Below are positions 3,147 through 21,033 of a stretch of DNA of 21,074 bases, one piece after another. A model generated the notes under the pieces. That model saw only the letters and a list, made by a program, of their open reading frames with translations. It ran no database searches and was not told the origin of the DNA. This DNA is from Candidatus Micrarchaeota archaeon. Lineage in GTDB: Archaea; Micrarchaeota; Micrarchaeia; Norongarragalinales; UBA8480. Every line of letters begins with the position of its first letter. Positions within the stretch are counted from its first letter, which is position 1. The stretch lies in contig JAZDHP010000021.1 in assembly GCA_043805855.1 (NCBI GenBank), positions 1 to 21,074 of the forward strand, read 5' to 3'. The translations under genes were made by a program, and so were the position numbers.

Positions 3147-3842
3147 ATGCGTTGGTTTTCTTTACTTTTTGCTTTTGTTTTCCTAGCTTCAACTTTAGTT
3201 GCAGCGGGTAACTATGGCGTAAGGTATTACGATAAAGGCGTGTATGGAGTTGGCTCGCCTCCAGCTTTTGACTACAGCGGAAGCCCAGCCGCAACAGCTG
3301 CTGCAAGCGCTGCTGCTAATGCTTTAATTGCATCTGGTGGCATAACTTGGACAAACACTACTGTGTTAACTACTAATGCGGCTAGTGTGGCTGCTTTGGA
3401 AAGTTCTTCAGGGTATTCTGCTAGTATTGCGTCATCTCAACGTATTGAATTTACAGTTGGTGAAGAAACTCACCATGTTGGGGTAATTAGTGTAAACGCG
3501 ACAATGGCTACTATTTTAATTCAAAGTACGCCGTTAAGTGTTACTCTTGCAATTGGCGAAAGCGCGCAGTTTGACTTGAACGACGACAGCACTGATGACC
3601 TCTATGTTAAGCTTTTGGGTATAAACAACTCAATTGCTAATTTAGTGATTAAGAAAATCAATCTAGAGGCAGCGGCGCCGGAAAGCGAAGAAGTTGAAAG
3701 CGACAACGCAACTGCAGGTACGGTTGGTGGAACTGAATCAACTGGCGAGAGCAAAGCAGATGAATTGCCATGGCTTCCAATAGTGGGAGTGATTGTAATT
3801 CTAGTTGTGCTTTACTTCGTGTTCGTTAAGTCAAAACGCTAA
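3147..3842 (+). CDS. Cell-surface protein with signal peptide and C-terminal membrane anchor
   Basis: AGGTGA SD before ATG 3147 (the ORF is open from 3120). Signal peptide, acidic linker, and C-terminal TM helix followed by KSKR. Confidence 0.75.
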   Translation: MRWFSLLFAFVFLASTLVAAGNYGVRYYDKGVYGVGSPPAFDYSGSPAATAAASAAANALIASGGITWTNTTVLTTNAASVAALESSSGYSASIASSQRIEFTVGEETHHVGVISVNATMATILIQSTPLSVTLAIGESAQFDLNDDSTDDLYVKLLGINNSIANLVIKKINLEAAAPESEEVESDNATAGTVGGTESTGESKADELPWLPIVGVIVILVVLYFVFVKSKR

Positions 3843-3856
3843 AAGGGAAACCAAAC

Positions 3857-3886
3857 TTTTCTTTTTTTTTCTTTTCTTCTTTTTTT
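3857..3886 (+). terminator. Oligo-T/pyrimidine tract, archaeal-type terminator
   Basis: About 30 nt of T/C immediately after the stop at 3842. Confidence 0.55.
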
Positions 3887-3910
3887 ATAATCCTTTACTT
3901 TTTAGCCGGT

Positions 3911-3949
3911 TTAGAACCATTTTTTCAATTGCGATTGATTTGAGTCTTC
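3911..3949 (-). repeat. Synonymously recoded duplicate of the fen1 3' end (EDSNQSQLKKWF*)
   Basis: GAA GAC TCA AAT CAA TCG CAA TTG AAA AAA TGG TTC TAA versus fen1 3992-4030 GAA GAT AGT AAT CAA TCA CAG TTA AAG AAA TGG TTC TAA. 31/39 nt identical, same peptide. Confidence 0.95.
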
Positions 3950-3982
3950 CAAAGGCCGCCACCGACGGCCTTTGAAACCTCT
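3950..3982. repeat. GC-rich hairpin element, also found in tRNA-Ser intron 1
   Basis: CAAAGGCCG-ccaccga-CGGCCTTTG (9-bp stem) followed by AAACCTCT. Confidence 0.8.
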
Positions 3983-3991
3983 AGAACCGAA

Positions 3992-5023
3992 TTAGAACCA
4001 TTTCTTTAACTGTGATTGATTACTATCTTCAGGGTCCTTGAACGCTCTTTTGAGTGAAGATTCTACTCTTTCTTTTGAAAACTCGTGTTCTTCTACCATT
4101 AGTTTGAAAATCTCTTCGCGCTGTGGTGGCTCGCGTTGTTTTAAAGTATCTTTGTCGACTTCGACGACGTTTGGGTGCATGAACAAGTCGTAAACTTCTT
4201 TCCATTGCATTTCTTTTCCAATTTCTTGCAAGATGCTGTCAAAATTAGTGTGCTGTGTATCCTGCGCTAACTTCAATGCTTTTTTTGGCCCGATGCCGTA
4301 AATGCCTTCGTTGAAGTCAGTGCCGTTAAGGAGGCCAATCCAGATGAGTTTTTCGCGTGTTATGTTTAATTTTTGCAAGCTTTCCTCGAGGTTAATTTCT
4401 TCTGGTTTTACTTCCATTGTCATATTTCTGCGGGGTATTTTCTTTTTTCCTGCAATTGTCAAATTGCGTACTAGTATAGGCGTGCCGAACAATAGTGTGT
4501 CGTAATCCTGCGACGCAGCTGCGTCTACAATTCCTTGCTGCGCCATTGCTGCGCATTGTGCTTCTCCTTCTCCTGGAGCTTGTACCCAGGGCACGCCCAT
4601 GATTGTTAGTAATTGTTTGCTCTGTTCTATTTCTACGCTTCCGAGCTTTGCTGTTCGTTGCGCTAGTGCCCCCGCTCGTTCAATATCGCCTTCTTTAATC
4701 GCCTCTAGGCGTTGCAATTCAGCGTGTTTTTTCACGGCTGCGCGTTCTTCTAGTGTTCTTTTTTTTAAGTCGCTTGGTTTGCCGTCAAAAACGTAAACTG
4801 GTTTTATTCCTTTTTCCATTAAACTACAAGTGCGGTAGAACAAACCACTCAAGTGGCTTGTTATTCTCCCATGTGAGTCCATTAATGGTGTGCCGTCTGG
4901 CTGGCGGATAATTGTAATAAATTGATAAAGTGTGTTAAACGCGTCTATTGCTAGGCGTTTGCCAGCTAGTGCTTCGAGTGTAGTTTCTCGTTTTTGCAAA
5001 ATGCTTCCAATGTCAACGCCCAT
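3992..5023 (-). CDS. fen: Flap endonuclease 1
   Basis: MGVDIG, AIDAFNTLYQF..IRQPDGTPLMD, YVFDG, EGEAQ, SQDYD, GTDFN, GIGPKKAL; C-terminal PIP box QSQLKKWF. Confidence 0.98.
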   Translation of the reverse strand: MGVDIGSILQKRETTLEALAGKRLAIDAFNTLYQFITIIRQPDGTPLMDSHGRITSHLSGLFYRTCSLMEKGIKPVYVFDGKPSDLKKRTLEERAAVKKHAELQRLEAIKEGDIERAGALAQRTAKLGSVEIEQSKQLLTIMGVPWVQAPGEGEAQCAAMAQQGIVDAAASQDYDTLLFGTPILVRNLTIAGKKKIPRRNMTMEVKPEEINLEESLQKLNITREKLIWIGLLNGTDFNEGIYGIGPKKALKLAQDTQHTNFDSILQEIGKEMQWKEVYDLFMHPNVVEVDKDTLKQREPPQREEIFKLMVEEHEFSKERVESSLKRAFKDPEDSNQSQLKKWF

Positions 5024-7904: not shown

Positions 7905-7947
7905 GTAAAGCATTTATTCTTGAATGCTTAAAACCTTTACTGTACAC

Positions 7948-8370
7948 ATGGAAAAATATAAATATCTAGAACACAAAGTAGACGTACTATTCGAAAGCTA
8001 CGGTTTTAAGCTAGAGGAAGCAATTGAAAACGCAGCACAAGCTACGTTTGAAACAATTGCAGATACCAGTAAATTGGAAGAAGATGAAAAAGTTGAAATT
8101 GAAGAAGATGCTGGGACGCTAGAAGAGTTAGTTATATTTGTGCTTGGCGACCTCGTGTCAGAAGCTGACAGCCGCGAGTTGTTTTTCAAAAAGTTTAAAG
8201 TCACTTCGCTGAAGCAAGTTGGCGAAGAGTGGCAGTTGAAAGGCTACGCGCTTGGGAGTGAAATGAAACCCGAACTCGGCGGGATACTAGTAAAAGCAGT
8301 AACGCACCACGAGTGTTCAGTAAAAAAACAAGGCAACATCTGGACAATACACGTGCTGCTTGACATATAG
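7948..8370 (+). CDS. Archease (RtcB cofactor)
   Basis: YKYLEHKVDV, ENAA, VKAVTHH and terminal LLDI. ATG 7948 is the likely start. Confidence 0.92.
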   Translation: MEKYKYLEHKVDVLFESYGFKLEEAIENAAQATFETIADTSKLEEDEKVEIEEDAGTLEELVIFVLGDLVSEADSRELFFKKFKVTSLKQVGEEWQLKGYALGSEMKPELGGILVKAVTHHECSVKKQGNIWTIHVLLDI

Positions 8371-8379
8371 GTTTTACAA

Positions 8380-8952
8380 ATGGCTAAACTTGCAGTTGAT
8401 ATTGTTTTGCTTCCGCCTGAATGGGTTATGGACAAAGCAATTGAAATAAATAAGCGATTAGTTAAGGTTGGAAGTAAGCTTGTTCTTGACAAGCAAAAAG
8501 TCATTCCGCATATGTCTCTGGCAATGGGCGTTTTAGAAGAAGCTTATTTACTCGAGGTAAGTGAAATACTTAGTAGCAAAATCGCGCCTAAGTTCATGCC
8601 AATTGAATTGCATGTAACTGGTGGCGATAAGGAAGAAGGCAATGGTTTTTCAATTGAACGAACGCCGAAGTTACAGGCGCTTCACGAAGAAGTAATGCAA
8701 AGTTTCTTGCCGTTCTTTACTTATGAAGCTCCTCAAGAGACGTATTTTTGTGAAATTAACCCGCAGTCTTTCAAGTTTCTTCCAAGTTTCAAGAAAGAAC
8801 ACGCTTTTGAAAATTTTAACCCGCATATTACGCTAGGAAAAGGAAACGCGGGCGAGCTAGAGTCATTCAAATTCACAGCAACCAGAATTGCAATTTGCCA
8901 CTTGGGCGATTATAATACTTGTAGAAAAATCTTATTTGAGTGTAAAGCATAA
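8380..8952 (+). CDS. 2H phosphoesterase (2'-5' RNA ligase / cyclic phosphodiesterase superfamily)
   Basis: Two HxT/S motifs, PHMSL and FNPHITLG. Confidence 0.85.
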   Translation: MAKLAVDIVLLPPEWVMDKAIEINKRLVKVGSKLVLDKQKVIPHMSLAMGVLEEAYLLEVSEILSSKIAPKFMPIELHVTGGDKEEGNGFSIERTPKLQALHEEVMQSFLPFFTYEAPQETYFCEINPQSFKFLPSFKKEHAFENFNPHITLGKGNAGELESFKFTATRIAICHLGDYNTCRKILFECKA

Positions 8953-13028: not shown

Positions 13029-13265
13029 CGCCGAGGACGAGATTTTCGAGTTCTCCCGGGTTTTCTTTTCCGTGAGGCTTTTCTTTTCTCAAAAGAAAAG
13101 GTTCGTCGAACTCGCAATCCCTTGCGGGAACTAGCTTACAAATAGGGAAACGCTTCGTGTTTCGGTCTCCCTAACTCAAGGCTAGCGCATTGCCATTGCA
13201 GAAGGCTTCTTGGCCAGAGGTCTAAAAGGCCTGCGGCCTGAGCGGCCTTTTTCTGCCACCTCGGC
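13029..13265 (-). tRNA. tRNA-Ser(UGA) with three introns (13196-13250 at 15/16; 13137-13174 at 37/38; 13043-13104 at 59/60)
   Basis: Removing the introns gives an 82-nt cloverleaf: GCCGAGG TG GCAGAATGGCAATGC G CTAGC CTTGAGA GCTAG TTCCCGCAAGGGATT GCGAG TTCGACT CTCGT CCTCGGC G. Long variable arm, G73, no encoded CCA, located downstream of tuf-rps10. Confidence 0.92.
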
Positions 13266-20225: not shown

Positions 20226-20747
20226 CTACTGCAGGAAGTTTTTGTTTTCTTTGATTGTTTTTTTGAATTCTTCTAGGAGTTTGGCGTTTATTCTGTATTC
20301 TACTTTAAGCAGCGCTTCTAGTATTTCAAGAGCTTGTTTTTTTCCAATTGTTTTGCTTTTTAGCAGCAGTTTAATTATTCCAAGCGAGCCAATTGGCCTT
20401 AAATTAAATTGCTTTGCTAGAACTCTACCTTGGTGATCGTCTATAGCGATGAAATTCGTTTTTTCTTGAATTGCAAGAGAAATAGTCGCCTCTTCACCAG
20501 CGTCGCTAAACGGAATTTTAAAAACTTTATTTGCAGTTTTTACTTTTATTTGTCTATTGTCAATGTATTTTTGGACTACCTCGGCGTCGGGGGCTTTTAT
20601 TTCAATGCCATTTTCAACCACTTCGCGATAAACCGTTTCTTCTATTGACAAAGGGTTTTGAAATGCTTGTAAAAGTAGAGCTAAATGTCCAGATTTAGCG
20701 AATATTATCAAAATAGACGAATCGCAGACTGCGCTTGGTTTATACAC
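20226..20747 (-). CDS. PIN-domain protein, DUF3368/COG2405 type
   Basis: CDSSILI, VYREV, DAGEEATI, IDDHQGR..A..GSLGI. Confidence 0.9.
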   Translation of the reverse strand: MYKPSAVCDSSILIIFAKSGHLALLLQAFQNPLSIEETVYREVVENGIEIKAPDAEVVQKYIDNRQIKVKTANKVFKIPFSDAGEEATISLAIQEKTNFIAIDDHQGRVLAKQFNLRPIGSLGIIKLLLKSKTIGKKQALEILEALLKVEYRINAKLLEEFKKTIKENKNFLQ

Positions 20748-21033
20748 TTAAATCCTCCATTAAGTCTTTTTCATCGTAGTTCATTGTTATTCCGCGTTTT
20801 GCCAATTCGTGGTTCATTTCTCTCCAAGTTAGCCCTGCAATTTCAGCAGCTCTGCCAGTAGAAGCCCTTCCGGCGACGTATTCCGAAATAGCCTTTTCAA
20901 GTAAAATTTCCTTCAACCCCTTTTCCAGCACATATCTATAGACAAAACTAGTGTCACTTGTAGGTAAAAATTGCTTTACTTTTTCTATTCCTTCCATTTG
21001 TTTATCGTCAACGCGCAAAGATACCGTTCTCAC
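20740..21033 (-). CDS. UPF0175-family antitoxin with RHH-like N-terminus
   Basis: MRTVSLRV; Y..G..STGRAAEIAGL..E...L..RGI; GGTGA SD before the GTG; overlaps the PIN gene. Confidence 0.9.
   Translation of the reverse strand: MRTVSLRVDDKQMEGIEKVKQFLPTSDTSFVYRYVLEKGLKEILLEKAISEYVAGRASTGRAAEIAGLTWREMNHELAKRGITMNYDEKDLMEDLSV

Follow-up and report, generated by a model that had tools for sequence, protein, structure and literature searches.

How does the same small GC-rich hairpin come to lie both at the 3' end of the flap endonuclease gene fen1 and inside an intron of a tRNA-Ser gene, in the 21,074-nt stretch of Micrarchaeota DNA analysed here (the window, to which coordinates given without a contig refer)? 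The pattern AAAGGCCG-N(5-14)-GGCCTTT-NNN-ACCTCT has two exact matches in the window, at 3951-3982 on the plus strand and at 13216-13250 on the minus strand, and none of 100 dinucleotide-preserving shuffles of the window matches the full pattern of stem plus ACCTCT; for the stem pattern alone, zero matches are expected in the window. The shared stem and tail recorded by the initial annotation at these two places (3951-3982 on the plus strand, 13250-13216 on the minus strand) thus stand. We propose that both hairpins probably belong to a non-autonomous selfish palindrome that would move at the DNA level, is kept at neutralised sites alone, and both gives rise to tRNA introns and settles in existing ones.

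The repeating unit is ~41-50 nt long and consists of a GC-rich hairpin of 7-9 bp followed by a one-sided tail of 12-18 nt; in the orientation that we call F, every copy has the hairpin first and the tail second. Similarity of the tails extends beyond ACCTCT and defines two subtypes: type A (TA[GA]ACCTC(T)GGCCAAG), which includes the tRNA-Ser copy with its tail TAGACCTCTGGCCAAG, and type B (..ACC[CT][AT]C[GT]GCAACCAAG, also given as ..CCTCTGCAACCAAG). The fen1 copy is closer to type B than to the tRNA-Ser copy, and loops are partly conserved inside each subtype. At fen1 the unit is made up as follows.

3951 to 3973, plus strand: fen1-side hairpin, with 8-bp arms AAAGGCCG/CGGCCTTT and a 7-nt loop.
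3974 to 3991, plus strand: fen1-side tail GAAACCTCTAGAACCGAA, reaching the fen1 stop codon, as placed by the family alignment and covariance model; the boundary between element and duplicated flank is uncertain by ~5 nt, and the last ~5 nt of the tail may be flank.

As RNA of the fen1 strand this hairpin has a folding energy of -24.8 kcal/mol (z -4.9), and none of 200 shuffles is equally stable. The covariance model scores 53.7 bits (E 4e-13) over 3949-3994, the fen1 copy itself being one of the model's seeds. In the alignment of 19 copies, an AU pair is replaced by GC in five copies and a GC pair by AU in one, with both-sided change at two of the seven stem pairs (variants AAAGGCC/GGCCTTT, AAGGGCC/GGCCCTT and AAAGGACC/GGTCCTTT); the observed covariation score was reached by none of 500 shuffles. 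These substitutions indicate that the hairpin is maintained via compensating changes.

The initial annotation had called for a genome-wide pattern search, a table of contexts, a search for empty sites and a covariance model, and these turned up both further copies and empty sites. In the source genome (G000; 1.03 Mb in 67 contigs, designated C2, C9, C42 and so on; 41% GC, 92% complete) the strict stem pattern occurs at 8 places, against 0 for a reversed-pattern control, and a looser pattern at 20; nhmmer gives 20 matches at E<1e-3, 19 of which are its own seeds. A covariance model built from the 19-copy alignment was then run on 61 genomes, with matches counted at E<=0.01. G001 is the closest sister, and the congeners are incomplete metagenome-assembled genomes (MAGs; 62-92% complete). 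The matches are distributed as follows.

G000, the source genome: 23.
G001, same genus, 71% complete: 15.
G002, same genus: 3.
G003, same genus: 2.
G020, another family of the same order: 5.
Nine further genomes: 1-2 each, weak.
The remaining 47 of the 61 genomes: 0.

Beyond these genomes, at least 120 metagenome stretches match the sequence pattern. Among the 80 loci examined with the family model, 14 hold a model match (15 matches in all), and by this yardstick the majority of the metagenome pattern matches are chance. Viral contigs contain six pattern matches, none of which passes the family model at E<=1e-3. One metagenome locus, L207 (Ga0265296_1014837, positions 112-224; 55% GC), belongs to a distant organism, in which the start of the neighbouring Rrp42-like gene is 44% identical to that of G000. 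It carries an identical 24-nt hairpin with a type A tail, which argues for transfer of the element between lineages.

Copies in G000 occur in several kinds of context. Four tRNA introns hold the element, those in the D-loops of tRNA-Ser(TGA) and tRNA-Val(TAC) and those at position 37/38 of tRNA-Gln(CTG) and tRNA-Gln(TTG), and the Gln(TTG) copy is reversed relative to the other three. Five tRNA 5' leaders (on C9, C47, C17, C34 and C10) carry it in antisense orientation, with the hairpin ending 0-3 nt before position 1 of the tRNA; anticodons of these tRNAs were read by hand, except for Leu(CAA), which is an ARAGORN call. Only one of the 23 copies is translated in frame, in the PpsA linker that joins the mobile domain (residues 411-481) to the C-terminal domain (513-800). 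In an LSM gene the stop codon TAA is formed by the first 3 nt of the hairpin, and one copy lies between a promoter-like box and an open reading frame (ORF) for a 374-residue AAA-ATPase. Other copies are found in untranslated regions, several just behind stop codons.

A PpsA query has 19 matches in G000 and 16-17 per congener (for example, C9:6783, C23:1844 and C5:65979), most of which align only with the phosphoenolpyruvate (PEP)-utilizer mobile-domain stretch (query residues ~370-490) in frames of ~450-530 amino acids. Judged by these matches, the PEP-utilizer mobile-domain frames are a large paralogue family.

Units also combine with each other and with a second repeat. They form tail-to-tail pairs on C28 and C29 and an array of three on C2. 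Six long-form copies contain, between hairpin and tail, a ~55-nt double-hairpin module with inverted ends (CAGCACAA..TTGTG-WCTGAGTCA-CAA..TTGTG-CTCA) that is found also in hairpins of the T-loop intron type. Examples in G000 lie at C2:12149, C4:1221, C12:13611, C29:47607, C44:6543, C45:6772 and C45:23400, among others, and ~18 of 26 matches to WCTGAGTCA have both flanking hairpins, as judged by eye. The nesting of this module in six element copies is as expected for DNA that tolerates junk. The pair at C28:13040-13124, that at C29:47722-47808 and a locus in the sister genome (G001 C30:1848-1896) are homologous, each with a TATA-like box and ..GACACGT.G.TGCCGGT followed by a tail-to-tail pair; they may be the 5' untranslated regions of small ORFs or an unrecognised RNA gene. 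We also considered the C28, C29 and C2 loci as an RNA gene or a protein C-terminus, and element pairs or arrays just downstream of TATA-like boxes fit better. In Rfam at E<=1, neither the element nor the double hairpin nor any of the odd loci matches a family.

A stable, conserved stem with loops that are partly conserved within subtypes, found directly ahead of five tRNAs and shortly after several stop codons, could instead be a functional RNA signal for processing, stability, termination or protein binding that is selected site by site and does not move. However, copies occur in both orientations relative to transcription, one is translated within a coding linker and has decayed in G001, six are interrupted by the nested second element, orthologous genes work without the hairpin, and no run of T follows the stem at fen1. 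We find a site-by-site RNA signal hardly credible as the explanation of the family. The related expectation that copies would turn out to be ordinary terminator hairpins fails at fen1 for the same lack of a T-run; an intrinsic terminator there was considered and set aside, GGAAGACTCAAATC being what follows the stem on the fen1 strand.

The tRNA-Ser gene suggests how such an insertion could be tolerated. It was found by global alignment with the genes of G001 (138 nt, one intron) and G002 (205 nt, two introns), its exons being identical to those of G001, and it is undetected by ARAGORN (at default settings or with introns allowed) and by the Rfam tRNA model. Its parts are the following.

13029 to 13265, minus strand: tRNA-Ser(TGA) gene, 237 nt, with three introns (D-loop, 37/38 and T-loop), from alignment with the sister genes.
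13196 to 13250, minus strand: 55-nt D-loop intron, consisting of the hairpin (13250-13225), the tail (13224-~13204) and 13 nt, AAGCCTTCTGCAA.
13137 to 13174, minus strand: canonical 37/38 intron, without the element, read by hand and from the alignment.
13043 to 13104, minus strand: T-loop intron of a second family (CTTTTCTTTT hairpin), absent from G001 and present in G002.

With 13250-13196 taken out, the sequence reads GCAGAA|TGGCAATGC, exactly as in the G001 gene, which has no interruption there. The intron can form a relaxed bulge-helix-bulge (BHB) motif (HBh') with a central helix GCAG/CTGC, bulges AAA and AAT, a 5-bp inner helix (AAGGC/GCCTT) and an outer helix of 0 bp, and the same helices and bulge recur when the region is folded to minimum energy without constraint. 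The tRNA-Val gene of G000 contains a 55-nt D-loop insert and a 63-nt T-loop insert, and its D-loop intron likewise forms a relaxed BHB motif (GTCG/CGAC, bulges AGA and AAT, inner helix 4 bp); in both genes, the D-loop intron is the element plus ~13 nt that complete the motif. Both Gln introns contain a strict BHB motif, with inner helices of 6 and 8 bp, an outer helix of 5 bp and 3-nt bulges. In these introns one strand of the inner helix is supplied by the 5' arm of the hairpin, or by the 3' arm in the reversed copy, and the joins predicted from the BHB geometry equal the uninterrupted sister genes, the predicted join for the Val D-loop intron being GTCGAG|TGGCC.

G000 encodes, in the region C10:28401-28874, a frame of 412 amino acids with two matches to the endonuclease catalytic domain PF01974, its specificity being taken from ARMAN-2 only. 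The splicing endonuclease of ARMAN-2, from the same phylum, is described as cleaving strict and relaxed BHB motifs in vitro (PMC3239211). Splicing of the element-bearing tRNA introns, predicted from the motif geometry, is thus plausible. In the whole of G000, ARAGORN with introns finds five tRNA genes and the Rfam tRNA model five above its cut-off; few are detected because the tRNA genes are interrupted at non-canonical places. A 266-nt tRNA-Ser query has matches at 36 places in G000, at 19 in G002 and at 10 in G001, the majority through the T-loop intron alone, which represents a second, much larger intron family (hairpin CTTTTCTTTT..AAAAGAAAAG) present in the T-loop of many tRNA genes. This T-loop family accounts for the low ARAGORN and Rfam counts.

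Sister genomes contain empty versions of the filled sites. The D-arm of tRNA-Ser is intact in both G001 and G002, and tRNA-Val is a 72-nt intronless gene in G001, G002 and G003. For tRNA-Gln(CTG), the element-bearing 37/38 intron is shared by G000 and G001, and G002 has no intron there. The 37/38 intron of tRNA-Gln(TTG) is present in G000, G002 and G003, with the element in G000 and G002 and without it in G003, where the inner helix is GAAAGG/CCTTTC. Both patterns are therefore present among the sequences compared: new introns that are almost wholly element, and an element residing in an older intron. The idea that the element seeds or colonises tRNA introns accordingly draws on the empty Ser and Val D-loops and the empty Gln(CTG) 37/38 site for seeding, and on the older Gln(TTG) intron with and without the element for colonisation. 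Outside introns, the tRNA-Arg(GCG) leader contains the element in G000 and G001, and the leaders of G002 and G003 are unrelated and of similar length; similarly, the PpsA linker of G001 has a decayed copy at the same place, and the linkers of G002 and G003 are unrelated and of similar length. The tRNA-Arg(GCG) loci of the four congeners (C47:15900-16130 in G000, and L151, L152 and L153) have a TATA-like box ~75-80 nt upstream and a ~50-nt leader with or without the element. Together, 23 copies, a patchy distribution in relatives, both orientations and empty sister sites make the tiny mobile palindrome at neutralised sites suggested by the initial annotation the reading that these sequences favour.

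The direction of this relationship could also be reversed. A tRNA intron may have been the source, with excised, circularised intron RNAs, or DNA copies of them, filling or templating breaks, such that the tRNA copies are the parents and not the targets. The core of the type A tail, CCTCTGG, is the anticodon-loop sequence of tRNA-Gln(CTG) and directly precedes the hairpin there, and the tail's TGGCCAAG is the D-loop sequence of tRNA-Val. The element-free Gln(TTG) intron of G003 already resembles the hairpin arms in its GAAAGG/CCTTTC helix, the Gln(TTG) copy is common to G000 and G002 and hence old, variable flank duplications (see below) suit break repair, and the window encodes archease and a weak, below-cut-off match to the 2'-5' RNA ligase superfamily. 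However, no reverse transcriptase was found in the four congeners, type B copies lie almost only outside tRNA genes, tRNA introns contain the element in both orientations and leaders in antisense, and copies outside tRNA genes are not accompanied by the 3' BHB-completing segment of any known host intron. An origin from a tRNA intron is, in our judgement, unlikely.

At fen1, the element sits at a duplicated gene end, with the following features.

3992 to 5023, minus strand: fen1, intact (Pfam XPG_N 4e-21, XPG_I 3e-28).
3992 to 4030, minus strand: copy B, the functional last 12 fen1 codons plus stop (EDSNQSQLKKWF and stop), from the ORF and its translation.
3911 to 3949, minus strand: copy A, a relic of the same 12 codons plus stop, also encoding EDSNQSQLKKWF and stop.
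3950 to 4030, no strand assigned: 81-nt insert of copy B, tail, hairpin and 1 nt, relative to genomes with a single fen1 3' end.

The order on the fen1 strand is gene, copy B with its stop, element, copy A, and the segments 3906-3949 and 3987-4030 form a 44-nt direct repeat (77% identical, spacing 81 nt). The empty site is seen in G002 and G003, in which the gene runs from ...QSQLKKWF and its stop directly into the spacer; fen1 orthologues in the congeners are 73-75% identical (G002 75% and G003 74% protein identity). Of the 39 positions, 8 distinguish copy A from copy B, all of them synonymous and one a switch between the serine codons TCA and AGT; in 300,000 random draws of eight substitutions, the peptide was never preserved. 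Compared with the orthologous 39 nt, copy A is identical at 34 positions to G002 and 31 to G003, and copy B at 31 and 32, respectively; copy A is the nearer to G002, and copy B, by a narrow margin, to G003. These synonymous-only differences indicate that the second end is not a simple in-place duplication that later drifted, and duplication in place followed by drift of the dead copy is very unlikely on this comparison.

A groundwater metagenome contig of 1815 nt, from a strain ~93% identical, differs from the window at 18 positions over 3501-3841 (~5%) and at 52 over 4025-4600 (~9%). It has 105 nt where the window has 183 nt (3842-4024) and is thus 78 nt shorter; the match ends 5-6 nt into the duplicated segment, and the deficit is near the length of the 81-nt insert. 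The fen1 insert is apparently absent from this metagenome strain. A second contig from the same groundwater run contains the element with unrelated flanks. The statement of the initial annotation that both insertions leave an essential gene functional agrees with these data, the 3' end of fen1 being duplicated and the other copy lying in a tRNA-Ser D-loop intron for which splicing is predicted. Splicing of the fen1 or ppsA mRNA over the element was also considered and rejected: the BHB scan found no frame-restoring motif, and the best scores are 5-6, compared with 11-12 in the Gln introns.

Direct repeats that rebuild a gene end occur at four sites, with 37-52 nt between the repeats. Besides fen1, these are a site on C42, where a 52-nt element lies between two 68-nt copies that are 100% identical (73 of 74 nt counting one indel); C45:6729, where a long-form copy is flanked by a 9-nt repeat, CTAGCGTAG, that includes a stop codon; and L207, where the hairpin lies between two 26-30-nt copies of a gene start. 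The repeats on C42 hold a ribosome-binding site, a start codon and 21 codons, and the downstream copy runs into the intact gene. Shorter flank repeats of 6 nt (C28), 7 nt (C29) and 12 nt (C2) were seen by eye, as were microhomologies between tail end and target (CCAAG in L207, TAGAACC at fen1).

The tandem 125-nt period formed by duplication and element on C42 (C42:1167-1365; L110:268-460) by itself gives a strict BHB motif (TTAA/TTAA with AGA/AGA bulges and 5 bp in both the inner and the outer helix). The motif lies where an mRNA has an anticodon-like stem-loop, GAGTT-TTAAAGA-AACTT, and splicing would restore the original message; this motif may be a matter of chance. A palindromic target duplication as the general source of the BHB central helix was also considered; it fits C42 but not the Ser and Val introns, in which the 3' end is a genuine reverse complement of exon sequence.

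A duplicated gene end that makes the gene whole again is the hallmark of integration by tyrosine-recombinase elements. The hairpins could accordingly be remnant attachment sites of larger elements of this kind, viruses or plasmids, from which the cargo has been deleted. The repeats at the four sites do rebuild gene ends, copy B of fen1 looks imported in having only synonymous differences, copies associate with tRNA genes, and G000 has two tyrosine recombinase genes (C32:15091 and C12:26875). Integration of a recombinase-bearing element is also the model proposed for the disruption of one tRNA in Caldiarchaeum (PMC3293823). However, only 37-52 nt separate the repeats at the four independent sites, with no integrase or cargo between or beside them; neither recombinase gene adjoins an element site, both being distant or on different contigs, duplication lengths and targets differ everywhere, the PpsA copy is translated in frame, and no viral-contig match (0 of 6) passes the model. 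Remnant attachment sites are quite improbable as the origin of the family, on a footing only slightly better than that of an RNA signal.

Several observations weigh against a selfish palindrome that moves as DNA. Profile searches of G000 and G001 found no Y1_Tnp (PF01797), rve, Cas1 or RVT_1, although a transposase could be unassembled in these incomplete MAGs. DDE_Tnp_1 was likewise found in neither, matching only in the element-poor G002 and G003, and the four matches to TnpB (PF07282) are all below the cut-off. When all ORFs were compared with one another, no family reached three near-identical copies. The lengths of the flank duplications lie between 6 and ~74 nt, a spread that no single staggered-cut enzyme explains. 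Each of the two new D-loop introns closes with its own 5' junction in reverse complement, lacking 3 nt and followed by AA, which is not expected from random insertion. One of the two fen1 ends looks imported with the element from a diverged lineage, which recombination would fit better than transposition. Finally, the difference between empty and filled sites could partly mean loss and not gain. The window itself contains no transposase or integrase among its proteins, as the initial annotation had reported for transposases.

The family, its contexts, the empty sites and the BHB geometry are observed; mobility at the DNA level, splicing and the creation of new introns by the element are inferred from them. 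They suggest the following course for a selfish palindrome. The element would spread as DNA within one genus of Micrarchaeota (DPANN archaea), landing in either orientation and being retained only where the host is unharmed. Where the site is a tRNA gene, a BHB motif with the exon would be completed by the hairpin's 5' arm together with a short complementary stretch at the opposite end of the insert, and a broad-specificity splicing endonuclease and a ligase would remove the insert. In a leader, the element would lie directly before position 1 of the tRNA, and further tolerated sites would be untranslated regions and, in frame, a variable protein linker. At a gene end, the frame would be kept whole by a duplicate of that end, placed on the side of the insert that faces the gene; fen1 would be such a case, with a recoded 12 codons, stop and element placed before the old 3' end, which is now a relic. 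Our working guess is that insertion occurs during break repair or template switching with no dedicated transposase, and that recombination spreads the element between lineages; this route is favoured because the flank duplications vary in length, tail ends and targets share microhomologies, and one fen1 end looks imported.

A more specific proposal can be made only tentatively, and we consider it possible but rather less likely than not to hold in all its parts. The palindrome would be the vehicle of tRNA intron gain, through repair-type insertion that needs no transposase and copies flanks; a hairpin arm and an inverted copy of the junction would give an instantly spliceable BHB motif, new introns would be born from selfish DNA, neither inherited nor copied from another intron, and the same copying of flanks would rescue the ends of essential genes.

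Three groups of genes or ORFs in the window are recorded here for completeness. The archease gene (RtcB ligase cofactor; 7924-8370, plus strand, E 9e-29) lies between the two element copies. An adjoining ORF (8380-8952, plus strand), likewise between the copies, has the weak 2'-5' RNA ligase superfamily match mentioned above (E 7e-5, below the cut-off). At 20226-21033 on the minus strand, a UPF0175 gene (E 6e-15) is followed by an ORF with a weak DUF3368 match, an arrangement with the look of a toxin-antitoxin pair.

Small palindromic repeats that lack an enzyme are known from Rickettsia, fungal mitochondria and bacteria, and the initial annotation had likened the element to a repetitive extragenic palindromic (REP) element or a miniature transposable element with inverted repeats (MITE), or to an IS200/IS605 end. 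The core of that idea, a mobile palindrome, is supported, and the assignment to IS200/IS605 or REP is not. Like REP sequences and bacterial interspersed mosaic elements (BIMEs) associated with REP-associated tyrosine transposases (RAYTs), and like IS200/IS605 ends, the element has as its unit one short hairpin, rich in GC, next to whose stem a stretch of sequence is conserved. Here, however, there is no Y1 (HUH) transposase and no TnpB above the cut-off, copies lie inside genes, and direct repeats flank several of them, whereas IS200/IS605 insertion is not known to make a target duplication. With classical MITEs it shares short length, multiple copies (23, with empty sites) and non-autonomy, and the pairs on C28 and C29, the only copies with terminal inverted ends, resemble such ends with a duplication of 6-7 nt. 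In contrast to MITEs, most copies are single units, the duplications vary from 6 to ~74 nt where a fixed length would be expected, and no parent or related autonomous transposon was found in the genomes searched. A census of prokaryotic MITEs describes high densities in some DPANN genomes (PMC11602168).

Fungal mitochondria offer a further likeness, in the GC clusters of yeast and in the double-hairpin elements of Allomyces, reportedly described by Paquin, Laforest and Lang in 2000. Like the present element, both are palindromes rich in GC whose host genome is richer in AT; they lie in spacers, in introns and in variable gene regions, contain nested insertions and have no known enzyme, but they are organellar and have no link to BHB motifs; to our knowledge, duplications that rescue gene ends are not a feature of either. 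Rickettsia palindromic elements, said by Ogata and colleagues in 2000 to be selfish DNA lying in frame in protein genes and also in RNA genes, share with it a small palindrome without transposase, in-frame tolerance and a reduced genome. Compared by description, the element differs in that only 1 of its 23 copies is in frame, most lie in tRNA introns, tRNA leaders or rescued gene ends, and its length is about one third. It adds an archaeal example of selfish palindromes that are tolerated in essential genes.

A further comparison is with tRNA introns of other archaea, the acquisition of which is an acknowledged open question for which the element is a concrete, testable candidate vehicle. A literature search that did not reach most subscription journals found no report of one palindrome common to new BHB introns, to the leaders of tRNA genes, to a linker within a coding sequence and to gene ends that have been rescued. 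In Asgard archaea, repeated intron gains are described, with copying between tRNAs, mobile elements and reverse transcription tested, and no general route of arrival was found there (10.64898/2026.10.13.758758). In Thermoproteales, intron families common to different tRNAs and positions have been attributed to "intron transposition", by a mechanism stated there to be unknown (PMC4090602; PMC3239211). Both Thermoproteales and the genus studied here have near-identical introns in different tRNAs and positions (D-loop, 37/38) and recent gain, together with a splicing endonuclease of broad specificity, predicted in the case of this genus, and a process assumed to act at the DNA level (10.64898/2026.10.13.758758; PMC4090602; PMC3239211). 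The Thermoproteales accounts cited here name no vehicle, whereas the host here is a DPANN archaeon with a multi-unit endonuclease frame, and the core of its introns is found also in leaders, untranslated regions, a coding linker and gene ends, in both orientations and with empty sites in sister genomes. In this genus a given tRNA gene can be compared with and without its insert, the exons being the same as in the closest sister, and the inserts are almost wholly one recognisable repeat that also lands outside tRNA genes, which makes the route of intron gain testable.

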